Below, piece after piece: positions 57,697 through 64,000 of a stretch of DNA of 64,000 nt; position 1 is the stretch's first letter, and each line of letters starts with the position of its first letter. The notes under the pieces were generated by a model. It was not told where the DNA came from. It saw only the letters and a list, made by a program, of their open reading frames with translations, and searched no databases. This DNA comes from an uncultured virus (IMG/VR IMGVR_UViG_3300028591_000115) (taxonomy: Duplodnaviria; Heunggongvirae; Uroviricota; Caudoviricetes). Position numbers and translations under genes: made by a program. The DNA is taken from IMG/VR virus record IMGVR_UViG_3300028591_000115, one strand, 5' to 3'.

Positions 57697-57796
57697 AAAA
57701 AAATTGTTACAAAAGTATTAAACATTCAAAAAAGGGGTTGTAATGCAACCCCTTTTGTGGTATACTCTTATCAGATCAAGAGAGGAGGACACCACG

Positions 57797-58198
57797 ATGA
57801 CTTACTACTGGGACATGGACGGAGTGCTCGCCAACTTCCACAAGGCTTACGCTAATGACCGGGCTATCGCCCTCAAGCGTGAAGCGATGGCGAACCTTGA
57901 GCCCTTCATGGCCAACGTGGTTACCGTCCGGAATCTGATGGCTGAAGGCCACACCTGCTACATCCTCACCAAGGCCGCCAACGCTGAAGGCGCTGAAGGC
58001 AAGGTCGAGTGGCTCGCCAAGTACATCCCCGAGATGGACGAGGCCCACACCATCATCATCACCAAGGGCCGCAAGGTTGACAACATCCGTGAGGATGGAA
58101 TCCTGGTGGATGATGATGCCGCCAACACCCGGCAGTGGGAAAAGGCCGGACACAAGGCCATCCTCCTCACCACCAAGGGCGAGGCCGTCCGGATCTGA
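57797..58198 (+). CDS. HAD-superfamily phosphatase, 5'(3')-deoxyribonucleotidase-like (133 aa)
   Basis: WDMDGVLANF (motif I), ILT, K and ILVDD motifs; GGAGG RBS. Confidence 0.8.
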   Translation: MTYYWDMDGVLANFHKAYANDRAIALKREAMANLEPFMANVVTVRNLMAEGHTCYILTKAANAEGAEGKVEWLAKYIPEMDEAHTIIITKGRKVDNIREDGILVDDDAANTRQWEKAGHKAILLTTKGEAVRI

Positions 58199-59004: not shown

Positions 59005-59143
59005 CCCCAGCCTTTTCATTTGCACGCGCGCCAGCGGGCCTGGCGCGCGTTATTGCGCTATAGAACAGGATCCAGAAAAATTTATTTCGGGAAATGTGAA
59101 AAAAAGTGTTGACTTCTGATCCCGTTTCTGCTATACTATCATC

Positions 59144-59215
59144 AGTGAGAGAGAGTAGCAACTCTTGAAGGGCGCTCGACAGAGCCAGAGGTGGCCCACC
59201 AAAAAAAACTGCTAC
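59144..59215 (+). ncRNA. Putative small structured RNA, copy 1 of a three-member family
   Basis: Promoter at 59109-59137 and no ORF; GTAGCA/TGCTAC closing stem around ACTCTT-gaa-GGGC-hairpin-GCCC-A-tract. Confidence 0.6.
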
Positions 59216-60239: not shown

Positions 60240-60368
60240 CACAGACGCAGCCCCCTCTCGCTTCTCTCCTTTCAGGCGGGAGGGTTTCTTTTTGGCCGAC
60301 CGCGCGCGACCGGCGCGGTCGGCATTTGAGTTGTAAAGGGGTCTCAGGGTTTGTGCTTGCGAAAGGGT

Positions 60369-60487
60369 AAAAAAAAGAGCGGGGATCGGACTCCCGCAAT
60401 GCCATCGGCTTTTGTTTTGCTGGGCTCGCCCGGCTCCGTGAGGAGCGCCCTAGAGGAGTGCCGGTGGATCACTACCATCTCCCTGTG
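60369..60487 (-). ncRNA. Putative small structured RNA, copy 2, with its own terminator
   Basis: Minus-strand TTGACA-17-TATCTT promoter; core ACTCCTCTAGGGC-hairpin-GCGAGCCCAGCAAAACAAAAG; terminator GCGGG..CCCGC plus T-run. Confidence 0.65.
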
Positions 60488-60654: not shown

Positions 60655-61089
60655 ATGAAGATCTGGTTCGACATGGATGGAACGATCGCCGATCTGTACG
60701 GCGTGACTGATTGGCTCCCGGCTCTGATCGCCGAAGATACCCGCCCTTACGAAGTGGCGAAGGGGATCGGCAATCTCGCTCTGATCGCTCGGCTCCTCAA
60801 CAAGGTGCAGGCGAACGGTCACGAGATTGGAATCATCTCTTGGACGGCTAAAGCCGGAACCGCCGGATACAACGCTCGGATTTACGCCGCAAAGGTTGGT
60901 TGGCTCGGCAAGCACCTTCCTTCCGTAAACTGGGACACGATCCTTGTCAAGCCCTACGGAACTGACAAGCGGGTTGCCACTGGTGGCGGGATCCTCTTCG
61001 ATGATGAGGAACCGAACCGGATCGGATGGGGCGAAGGCGCCCACACTCCTGCCGAGATCGTGGAAGTCCTCAAGGCTCTTACCAGATAA
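60655..61089 (+). CDS. Second HAD-superfamily phosphatase paralogue (144 aa)
   Basis: FDMDGTIADLY, IISW, K and ILFDD motifs. Confidence 0.75.
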   Translation: MKIWFDMDGTIADLYGVTDWLPALIAEDTRPYEVAKGIGNLALIARLLNKVQANGHEIGIISWTAKAGTAGYNARIYAAKVGWLGKHLPSVNWDTILVKPYGTDKRVATGGGILFDDEEPNRIGWGEGAHTPAEIVEVLKALTR

Positions 61090-61319
61090 GACAATGTCAA
61101 ATCTGGTAAACTAAAACTGACGCAGCACCCCTGACCTTCCTCCTTGGGTTGGGGGTTTTCCTTATTTTGTGGGCTGCGCGCCGGCGGTCGCCTGCGCGCA
61201 GTATTTCGGCTAATTAGGAGGATCAGAAAAAATTTTTTTGAAAAAGTTGTGAAAAAAGGGTTGACAGATTATCCCTTATCGTGTATAATGACTACAGTAA
61301 GAAACAGGAGGTAACCACC

Positions 61320-61493
61320 ATGAAGCTGATCGCCACCGTCAACAATCTCCCCGCCAACCTCTCCAAGTACGCTTGGATCACCGCTCGCGCTGTCGATGGC
61401 GAGCTCTGGTTCTACGGCGCTTGGTACGATGAGGATGGCGCTCGGGCTCAGGCTCGGGAGATCGACGGCATCGCCCTCAAGGTTGAGGGCTGA
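61320..61493 (+). CDS. Hypothetical small protein (57 aa)
   Basis: Perfect TTGACA-17-TATAAT promoter and AGGAGG RBS; ARAVDGELWFYGAW. Confidence 0.75.
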   Translation: MKLIATVNNLPANLSKYAWITARAVDGELWFYGAWYDEDGARAQAREIDGIALKVEG

Positions 61494-61560
61494 TGCTGAA
61501 AAAATTCAGCATCTATCCTGTTATAATAAGAGTGTAAGAAAGAGAGAGGAGTAAACGAAA

Positions 61561-61857
61561 ATGACTACCTACACCGATCTGATCCGCAAGATGGATAATC
61601 CCCGCTACGTTGGCAAGATGGACAAACCGGTCAAGCGGGTTAATAAAGTCTATGATCTGTTTATTGATGGATCTTACATCAAGACCGAATACCACAAGAA
61701 CAACGATCAGCTTGCTATTGGTCGGCTGATGGATCACGCTCGATACTACATCGACAAGATGAACCGGCTCGGCGGTGATCCCGCCGGTGAGATTGAGATC
61801 CGGATCACTGACAGGGATGGAAAAATTTCTTTCAAGAAATTTTCCAAAAACGCTTGA
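61561..61857 (+). CDS. Hypothetical protein (98 aa)
   Basis: AGGAG RBS; extended -10 (TGtTATAAT) upstream. Confidence 0.7.
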   Translation: MTTYTDLIRKMDNPRYVGKMDKPVKRVNKVYDLFIDGSYIKTEYHKNNDQLAIGRLMDHARYYIDKMNRLGGDPAGEIEIRITDRDGKISFKKFSKNA

Positions 61858-61912
61858 CAGGATCAAGCAAACCTGCTATAATGTAACCATCAAGAGAGAG
61901 GAGCGAAAGACA

Positions 61913-62188
61913 ATGACAAGCAAGAAATTCGCAGGACACGAAAAGGCCGCCGCTAAGATCAACTACTACGAAGACGGCTCCATGGAACTGGTGAGCTACA
62001 AGACCGTGGTTGCCACGGTTGACCCCGAAGGTTGGGTGCACCTCAACGGCCTGTACAGCATGACCACGATCAAGCACATCGGTTGGTTCGCCCGGCTGAT
62101 CGGTACGGACTACCACACGCTGAAAGGCCTCATGGTCGACCACAAGGACATGAACCTCAACACCGGCGAGGTGGTGGATTGGGAGTAA
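61913..62188 (+). CDS. Phage hypothetical protein (91 aa)
   Basis: Own promoter, RBS and terminator; LVSYKTVVA...YSMTTIKH pattern typical of small phage early proteins. Confidence 0.75.
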   Translation: MTSKKFAGHEKAAAKINYYEDGSMELVSYKTVVATVDPEGWVHLNGLYSMTTIKHIGWFARLIGTDYHTLKGLMVDHKDMNLNTGEVVDWE

Positions 62189-62350
62189 TCCCAATCCTTT
62201 TTCTTTTGAGCCGGTCGTTGCTGGGCGCGACGACCGGCATTTAGATTTTGGTAGGGTCTGCATAATTATACAATCGCATTGCATAAAAAAAGTGCTTGAC
62301 AGCCGATCCTGTATCTGGTACAATAGTGGTGGAAAGGAAGGTGCTACCCC

Positions 62351-62785
62351 ATGACTGAACTGACTGCGATCCGTGACTTCGTTGAGCTGATCACCGGCAT
62401 CCGCCCTGTGATCGCACGCAAGCGTGACGATTGGTCTGTTATTTCCGAAGCCGACTCCATGCGGATGACCGTCCCCACGGTCTACACCGGCTCCGAAACT
62501 GACAAGGCTTTCCGCAAGGACTTTGTGAGCCGTTGCCCTCTTGCCCGGGGCTTCGCTGATGTTACCATTAGCATCCTGCACGAGATGGGGCACTTCGCCA
62601 CCCGTGACAACTTCAACAGCGATGTGTACACCGCACAAGTTGAGGAAGCCGGCGCCGACATGGAAAAATACATGGCGATCCCTTACGAGATGCTCGCCAC
62701 CTGTTGGGCGATCTGTTGGCTGATGGATCCGGACAACCGGAAAGAAGCCAAAAATTTTGAGAAAAATTTCTTCGGAAGGGGTTGA
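62351..62785 (+). CDS. Putative HExxH zinc metallopeptidase-like protein (144 aa)
   Basis: ILHEMGH with downstream PYEMLA as a candidate third ligand. Confidence 0.65.
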   Translation: MTELTAIRDFVELITGIRPVIARKRDDWSVISEADSMRMTVPTVYTGSETDKAFRKDFVSRCPLARGFADVTISILHEMGHFATRDNFNSDVYTAQVEEAGADMEKYMAIPYEMLATCWAICWLMDPDNRKEAKNFEKNFFGRG

Positions 62786-62816
62786 CAAACCGCCCCGGAT
62801 CTGATACAATGATCAT

Positions 62817-63099
62817 GTTGAAAGGAGATGGTTCCGATGGGGATCGAAGCCCCCGGCCCGCAGGCAGGTGCGAAGCGGGCCACATGGGCGGGAGGTAAGC
62901 ACCCAGCCGGTTGAGGAGAGGGCCCCCAAGACCGGCAAGCGAACCTTGGCAAGTGAATGGAGGATGGCCACCGCCTTAAGAAGCCCCAGGGAGGCTGAAG
63001 CCGATTGCGAGAGCGCAAGTTGCTCGTGTAAGACCTTCAAACTCGGGAAACGAGGATGCCCCGAACCCTGTTGATACAGAGCCGAACGGCTCTTTTTTT
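62817..63099 (+). ncRNA. Putative ~280 nt structured ncRNA
   Basis: Promoter at 62782-62810 and terminator at 63079-63099; 5' GGTTC..GGGGATC can pair with 3' GAT.CCCC.GAACC; many short hairpins; only a 25-28 codon ORF. Confidence 0.6.
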
Positions 63100-63223
63100 A
63101 TTGGCCGAGCGTGCGCGGGCCACACGCTCGGCATTTGGGATCAGCTAAGGGTTCAGAAAAAAAATTTTGCAAATCGGCCAAAAAAGTGTTGACAAATGGC
63201 TCCCGTTATGGTATTCTATACTC

Positions 63224-63674
63224 ACCGGAAGGGGTTAGAGCCCGGGGCCACGGGTGCCAAAGCCGATGGAAGGAGCTACGCGCGGAGCGCCCCGCGCGCG
63301 GAAGAACCCGGGGGGTTGGAGTAGCGCACCAAGGGCCGAAGGCCAAGGCCGGATCTCCCGGGGCCGAAACTACTACGTTGAGGGTAGGCAGAGCCGGAAC
63401 ATCGGGTAGCCGAGCCGGTGGGGCCCATGAGAGCCTGTAAGACCTCCCCAATGAAACGACCGCAGGCCGAAGTCCTACTCTGCGGTATACGGGGCGAGGA
63501 ACCCCGGGGTCCGAAAGGGCTCAAATGTGCGGGCAACAACAGGGGAGCGTCTGGGACCCCGGGGCCAGTAGGATGGACGCAAAGGGTGGTAACCTGCCCG
63601 ACGAAGAGCCGGGCTTGAGACCTCAAGTGCGAGGACGAATAGCCAACAGAGGGATCAGCTGATCCCCCTTTTTT
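63224..63674 (+). ncRNA. Putative ~450 nt highly structured ncRNA
   Basis: Promoter at 63189-63217 and terminator at 63650-63674; end-to-end pairing, many GC stems and a 7 bp pseudoknot candidate; no RBS-led ORF. Confidence 0.7.
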
Positions 63675-63802
63675 CATTTGAGCTGGTCGCGGGCGGCCGC
63701 GCGCGACCAGTTTTCACGCTTCAGAGAGGATCCAGAAAAAAAGATTTGCAAAAGGCAGAAAAAAAGTGTTGACATCGGCTCCCGGATGTGGTATTATACT
63801 GT

Positions 63803-63912
63803 CAGAGGGAGAAGGCAGTGAACCGGCTGACACTCCTAAAGGGCGCCGAAAGGCAAGTGCGAGCCCCGCAAAACAAAAGTCACCGGCACGGGCGGGTCCG
63901 AACCGCCCACAA
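63803..63912 (+). ncRNA. Putative small structured RNA, copy 3
   Basis: Promoter at 63769-63797; core ACTCCTAAAGGGC-GCCGAAAGGC-aagt-GCGAGCCCCGCAAAACAAAAG; closing stem; 3' hairpin GGGCGG..CCGCCC. Confidence 0.65.
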
Positions 63913-63976
63913 AAAAGTTGTTGACAGATCATAAGGTCTGTGCTATAATGAAGCCATCAAGAGAAGGGAGCTAACC

Positions 63977-64000
63977 ATGATGAATACCGAAGTTATCAAG
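63977..64000 (+). CDS. Start of the next small gene (partial)
   Basis: Promoter at 63921-63949, GGGAG RBS and ATG at 63977. Confidence 0.5.

Follow-up and report, generated by a model that had tools for sequence, protein, structure and literature searches.

In the early region of the phage represented by the window, i.e., the whole analyzed stretch of 64,000 nucleotides, comparison of homologous loci predicts a real, apparently uncatalogued and modular structured RNA gene, termed RNA1 in the following, for which a function can be proposed by inference. As anticipated in the original prediction, RNA1 possesses both a promoter and a terminator of its own (Table 1), and the promoter hexamers are retained at a variable spacer in the homologous loci L030 and L031. 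Likewise, the presumed structured nature of the RNA is supported by an alignment that folds better than its shuffles and by pairs that change on both sides. Conservation of an encoded peptide in place of base pairing, named beforehand as the observation speaking against an RNA, was looked for as well, and it is the pairs and not the peptide that homologues keep.

Table 1. Positions of the predicted features of RNA1 and of the adjacent larger RNA in the window.
Feature	Position	Strand	Remarks
RNA1, whole non-coding unit (predicted)	62817..63099	+	ends inferred from promoter and terminator; about 280 nt
Sigma-A/70 host-type promoter, extended -10	62782..62810	+	TTGACA-17-TG-TACAAT, 11/12 consensus
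Intrinsic terminator	63078..63100	+	hairpin 63078-63093, then T run; invariant in 4/4 copies
End-pairing helix P1, 5' strand	62818..62825	+	partner 63067-63074; overlaps SD-like run 62821-62827
5' module (P2, P3, P4, P6)	62817..62937	+	alone in L100; fused to the neighbor's core in L032
Small hairpin P2, ATG at loop	62832..62842	+	4 pairs retained in 5/5, one changed on both sides
P3 (GCCC/GGGC) around P4 (GGCCCGC/GCGGGCC, 62855-62881)	62849..62889	+	
P6 arm (GCCGGT/ACCGGC)	62906..62936	+	forms in 6/6 copies
Possible hairpin P7, self-complementary loop hexamer 62965-62970	62959..62975	+	loop invariant in 4/4
3' module, consisting of P10, the motif strand and P11	62986..63076	+	
P10, GAGC/GCTC, GCRA-containing loop	63011..63025	+	takes the place of TTGCG/CGCAA
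GTAAGACC motif	63028..63035	+	invariant in 4/4 full copies
P11, TCGGG/CCCGA, invariant 12-nt loop	63043..63064	+	takes the place of CTCG/CGAG
25-codon ORF, not conserved as peptide	62837..62914	+	
Neighbor, first module	63224..63370	+	promoter 63189-63217; one part stands as its own cassette in L032, with a match in L101
Neighbor, core RNA	63375..63675	+	three-way junction 63380-63451

Family matches to virion proteins and terminase identify the window as a segment of a large phage, which is predicted to read through TAG, as applying code 15 increases long-ORF cover of window 1-54 kb from 54% to 83%. In the late-gene region (window 1-55131), ORFs reach up to 4046 codons once TAG is read through. 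From about 55 kb on, an array of small units follows, each equipped with a near-consensus host-type promoter, and between 60 and 64 kb nine promoter sites of the 11/12-consensus kind found at RNA1 are present versus 2.2 in shuffles. From this cassette array, RNA1 would be among the earliest genes of what is probably a gut bacteriophage. Early arrays in which promoter-cargo-hairpin units come and go are also represented by the PeSL cassettes of T4-type phages and the host take-over module of SPO1, in contrast to which the cargo is RNA here. Contigs with the neighbor's core belong to two bins, named Clostridia bacterium and Candidatus Fimisoma, a weak hint at a clostridial host. In the RNA run X1, labeled sheep gut, a fraction of 0.76 of the words of 61-64 kb is present, and the main pieces match the window without differences.

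At least three further full copies of RNA1 exist (L030, L031 and L035), with a mean column identity of 92% over the four-copy alignment A2, and at least two copies show the 5' half without the 3' half (L032 and L100); copy counts are lower bounds, the metagenome scan having matched at least 598 stretches. L001/G002 is a near-identical twin record of the window and, hence, was not counted as independent. Locus L031 is syntenic with the window and the upstream neighbors differ in L030 and L035, while an X19 contig (library type of the run unspecified) spans 61003-63103 with 72 differences. Distribution across related phages is patchy. The RNA1 model matched five of 79 related records (a set with many fragments), two of these matches being real and three being chance matches to a terminator or to coding sequence. 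RNA1 was found neither in the 16 near-complete related records nor in 151 sampled bacterial genomes, blastn of the RNA1 region against GenBank phages returned nothing, and RNA1 is missing from the corresponding site in two relatives identified via the upstream protein (48-49% identity). Viral contigs scanned for RNA1 patterns yielded only the twin record and the record of L035; other pattern matches (L034, 11 of 13 in one scan and 30 of 32 in another) were dropped, as their alignment to RNA1 ended with the pattern. A short hairpin model did not add any new member, its eight weak matches comprising seven that proved on inspection to be coding or non-cassette DNA and one copy of the neighbor's core.

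As a single sequence, RNA1 folds only modestly (z of -1.74, 11 of 200 shuffles being as good), and without terminator the four copies give z values of -1.33, 0.05, -2.53 and -1.23. The fold of the four-copy alignment, in contrast, beats column shuffles (z of -3.2, 1 of 200), with a structure conservation of 0.84 versus 0.74. In a hand model of 59 pairs, pairing is possible in 97% of cells, and P1, P6, P10 and P11 each contain one pair changed on both sides; this model was fitted on only the four full copies (at least four exist) at 92% column identity, and because it was fitted on these same sequences the shuffle controls are generous to structure. The suspected pairing of the 5' and 3' ends is kept in homologues as P1, with seven pairs in all four copies, one of them changed on both sides (A-U, G-C, G-U), and one internal mismatch left out, albeit the alignment ensemble favors a rival register (0.71 versus 0.14). 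The hairpins GGCCCGC/GCGGGCC and GCCGGT/ACCGGC, listed in the original prediction, are present and persist as P4 and P6 arm, respectively. P4 has a pairing probability of 0.86-1.00, and one of its pairs is changed on both sides in L100, a copy found only after P4 was named. The P6 arm forms even in L030 and L100, where both strands are rewritten and the register has moved by one base. Taken as a whole, the 5' module covaries only marginally (30 of 500 shuffles).

Two further proposed hairpins exist in the sequence but turn out to be drawn in the wrong register and are not kept: three of the five pairs of TTGCG/CGCAA are broken in L030 and one in L031, and of the four pairs of CTCG/CGAG one is broken in L030 and two in L035. 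Of the helices taking their places, P10 shows an exchange of A-U to U-A in L031 at a probability of 1.00 in the alignment ensemble, and P11 an exchange of U-A to C-G in L035 at 0.97, compared to 0.03 in the window copy alone. Imposing P1, P3, P4, P10 and P11 together costs 0.1-2.3 kcal/mol relative to the minimum in all four copies. Much less secure are P2, P7 and P8, and the full hand model lies well above the energy minimum; P2 is thermodynamically favored in only one of the four full copies, and the P7 stem bears a mismatch in two of them, with a probability of 0 in those two.

Modularity becomes evident when comparing RNA1 with the adjacent larger RNA, which consists of two fused modules, the second of which, the core, has its own promoter in L038, L039, L043, L044 and L045. 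In 16 copies of this core, eight of 14 pairs change on both sides, a value reached by none of 500 shuffles. Among 80 related records, 12 contain the core, often twice, and one more weak match lies on another RNA type. The core represents a wider uncatalogued RNA family of its own, in which the 5' junction is conserved and the 3' parts vary. In other phages, RNA1 halves occur alone or fused to this core: L032 shows the 5' module joined to it and L100 the 5' module alone with its own terminator, both break points being at the P6 boundary, and fusions occur at short shared words. A three-part fusion is seen at L030 7276-7735, combining an RNA1-like 5' hairpin, a module that is separate in L043 and the neighbor's core. 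Hairpin-plus-motif units like the 3' module of RNA1 head ORF-free cassettes in L097 and L099, where the helix is kept through changes; these two are the top matches in 1.38 Mb, weak when taken alone (E of 0.069 and 0.50).

A relationship between RNA1 and its neighbor had been suggested from the shared 10-mer TGTAAGACCT. This word is indeed present, at 63436 as described and at 63027 instead of 63026, but taken alone is at chance level, as 54 of 200 shuffles share an equally long word. The covariance model R2 of the core does not report the RNA1 3' module at E up to 10 (window, L030, L031 and L036), while seven of the eight weak matches of the reciprocal model are copies of the core (best E of 0.0046). 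A GG/CC helix closing a junction with the GUAAGA strand can be drawn in all four RNA1 copies, where it never varies and is not thermodynamically favored. What holds of the suggested relationship is a common junction-strand motif and module exchange (L032); the chance-level 10-mer and the failure of the core's model to detect RNA1 oppose common descent of the RNA1 3' module and the core, which probably share a functional motif.

For evaluating the GTAAGACC motif, 74 loci fetched by an early protein and not by the motif itself were used, excluding the twin of the window. In 611 ORF-free promoter units the motif occurs 13 times in sense and three times in antisense orientation, compared to seven sense and nine antisense sites in 1572 coding units, and it ranks second among 1680 anagrams. 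Of the 13 sense sites, two are likely due to chance and the others represent five scaffolds; as related copies are included, the sites are not all independent. One short motif carried by several scaffolds is what protein-binding RNAs would look like. In RNA1, the motif may be partly paired in three of four copies by local pairing of GUAA, and a helix displaying GUAAGA as in the neighbor has a probability near 0 at a cost of 3-11 kcal/mol. Another word, CGCTAAAG, is found 23 times in ORF-free units of L097-L170 and, thus, more often than GTAAGACC.

Searching Rfam 15 as originally proposed did not assign RNA1 to a family. At the gathering threshold the window gives no match, at E up to 10 the region 62700-64000 gives five weak unrelated ones without any ribozyme, and none of the nine weak matches in eight homologous loci is a plausible family on the sense strand of the RNAs. 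No description of these RNAs was found in the literature searched, although they may be contained in the alignments of PMC10690425, the largest screen for viral RNAs; among the viral candidate RNAs of this study (Fremin 2023), the readable tables gave no match, the inspected sheet being without sequences. According to PMC12286853, ROOL (RF03087) and GOLLD resemble RNA1 in being phage-encoded, structured and non-coding. In contrast to both, RNA1 is located in an early cassette array and splits into exchangeable modules, and ARAGORN finds no tRNA or tmRNA gene in the window. The ROOL model has no match in the window nor in G002 and G011, both carrying RNA1, and GTAAGAC is absent from nine ROOL copies and also from ten OLE copies. 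ROOL itself is present in eight of the 80 related records (G007, twice, G018, G028, G031, G033, G037, G040 and G042), corresponding to eight of the 16 near-complete ones, and hence this phage group already invests in structured RNA.

Comparison with four RNA families gave a single, weak lead, the raiA motif RNA (RF03072), similar to RNA1 in size and in having paired ends. GUAAGNCC overlaps the linker of this abundant host RNA, which is described as solvent-exposed, conserved and a proposed recognition site of KhpA-KhpB or another partner in PMC12968392 and PMC10861870, and GUAAG[A/U/C]CC occurs in nine of ten raiA copies fetched. Interchangeable early RNAs presenting the latter motif might mimic the linker and titrate its partner. 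This would turn phage RNAs into bait for the binding partner of raiA, an RNA-by-RNA mimicry in host take-over. The idea is a long shot, since the match is short, the upstream half is missing, helix polarity differs and no model cross-detects. Specifically, the full linker UUAGA(C/A)GUAA is absent from the ORF-free units, where only the GUAA-GNCC part is common and the upstream UUAGA half is lacking; CC opens a helix in raiA but closes one in the neighbor's core; the RF03072 model yields at best 7 bits in five phage records versus a cut-off of 101 bits, and searching with models either way does not connect raiA with these phage RNAs. In a class sample around G083, OLE is found in 47 and raiA in 11 of 101 genomes. 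The surroundings of GUAAGAC also resemble a TnpB guide-RNA scaffold. This candidate was rejected, as GUAAGAC is present in just one of 22 TnpB 3' ends, 39 phage records do not contain a TnpB above cut-off and the model of the neighbor's core does not find any TnpB end.

At a rough probability of 0.45, RNA1 may tentatively be regarded as a non-coding, trans-acting early RNA serving, most likely, as decoy or scaffold for a host RNA-binding protein in host take-over or counter-defence. On phage entry, host RNA polymerase would produce RNA1 from the near-consensus promoter, presumably early and at high level; the transcript would fold with paired ends, in line with the comparative evidence, and stop at its terminator. 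Paired ends and the SD-like 5' run might shield it from 5' decay, for which the STAB-SD of Bacillus cry3A mRNA (PMC4113751) is a precedent, likewise showing an SD-like run near the 5' end without conserved coding role. In RNA1, by contrast, the run overlaps the end-pairing helix and is followed by an ATG, and stabilization is only predicted. Invariant strands and loops, including GUAAGACC, would provide the binding surfaces, while the modules themselves have been acquired, split up and joined in different phages. Promoter and terminator being kept among different neighbors (L030, L035) argues against action in cis on a single gene, and an antisense target among the window genes was not detected (longest complement of 11 nt versus 10-13 nt in shuffles). 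Against a decoy or scaffold stand the unfavored GUAAGA display helix, the patchy occurrence, and a structure deduced from few, highly identical copies with marginal covariation in the 5' module. The alternative that RNA1 is a nearly neutral or selfish cassette, with pieces shuffled by recombination between repeated promoters and a fold kept only for survival without specific target, would also account for the patchy distribution, fusions at short shared words and modest folding z-scores; it appears rather improbable in view of long unpaired stretches being invariant while helices change in pairs, a motif recurring on different scaffolds with strand bias and break points lying twice at a domain boundary. 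Somewhat less plausible still is an RNA-only multimer or scaffold in the manner of ROOL, GOLLD or OLE, built via the self-complementary loop and GNRA-like loops. Consistent with a possible dimer role of the P7 loop are its invariant palindromic hexamer, with a loop-loop duplex of -9.7 kcal/mol, the palindromic kissing loops bridging OLE and GOLLD chains (PMC12286853) and the frequent ROOL genes in related phages. However, the P7 stem is weak in two of four copies, a palindrome-to-palindrome change was not seen among the copies, the 5' half exists without the palindromic loop, and RNA1 has only half the size of ROOL (about 580 nt). Self-cleavage or other catalysis might be deduced from invariant junction strands and from the argument in PMC10861870 that large structured bacterial RNAs often are ribozymes; as Rfam yields no ribozyme even at E up to 10 and the modules separate freely, it is very improbable.

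The remaining alternatives concern the short ORF, which indeed follows an AGGAG (62823-62827) and comprises 28 codons from 62828 or 25 from 62837, so that a peptide had initially been considered possible. Start and stop do persist: an SD-like run, an ATG and an in-module stop are found in six of six copies, with 25 codons in five and 20 in L035. A gene for a small conserved peptide, followed by a structured 3' tail, would fit a reading frame kept in five of six copies and nine of 24 residues being invariant in the four in-frame ones. However, ORF changes are distributed 9/9/9 over the codon positions (variable columns 8/10/7 with L100), in contrast to 10/5/29 and 23/15/47 in the upstream gene with its third-position bias, and nine of 27 changes are synonymous, compared to 26% of sites expected by chance. 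Third-position bias together with a kept frame, as looked for in a small-protein gene, was thus not found in the ORF. Lack of codon periodicity and the frameshift in L035, i.e., one of six copies, make a conserved peptide from the 25-codon ORF unlikely, and a peptide gene, largely refuted already, is hardly credible any more. Alternatively, translation and not the peptide might matter, with a ribosome loaded at SD and ATG to stabilize the RNA, to switch its conformation or to sequester ribosomes. This would agree with the persistent start and stop signals and with the leaders of L030 and L035 reading as a strong SD (GGAGGTGA) shortly 5' of the ATG. On the other hand, ATG and TGA could be kept for structure, as they lie within conserved structural elements, the loop of a related 5' hairpin, located on another L030 cassette, lacks an ATG, and SD-like 5' ends are common to ORF-free units (at the start of 318 of 611 versus 44 of 555 further in). 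All in all, a role of translation is unlikely, though less so than any of the other alternatives.

The recurring short motif on different scaffolds provides a direct experimental handle, with a small RNA and an 8-letter motif suited to pull-down; if the motif targets a host RNA-binding protein, RNA decoys would join the early take-over toolkit and might expose the partner of raiA. ROOL and GOLLD are each listed in catalogues as one conserved fold, whereas the early RNAs described here, several of them under promoters of their own, are built from modules that become split, fused and moved.

Expression was looked up in contigs from four of 22 listed runs, which cannot show ends, strand or level. 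RNA run X1 covers 62576-62842 (depth of 2.5) and 62980-63131 (7.45), promoters included, while contigs from X5 and X11 cover the neighbor and not RNA1. In total, the neighbor is covered in RNA runs of three studies and RNA1 partly in one.

Besides, several features of the early region were observed. GC-rich inverted repeats lie between the terminator and the next promoter of several cassettes (60295-60323, 62210-62238 and 63104-63133), and a 19-bp palindrome bounds cassettes in L035/L036. Genes for HAD-type nucleotidase-like proteins occur three times in one early region (window 57743-58198 and 60655-61089; L001 11336-11779). A third family consists of short ORF-free cassettes (window 63803-63912, 60341-60487 on the minus strand and 59143-59215), with relatives in L045, L031, L107, L100 and L103, some of which end in a hairpin with GTAAGACC.
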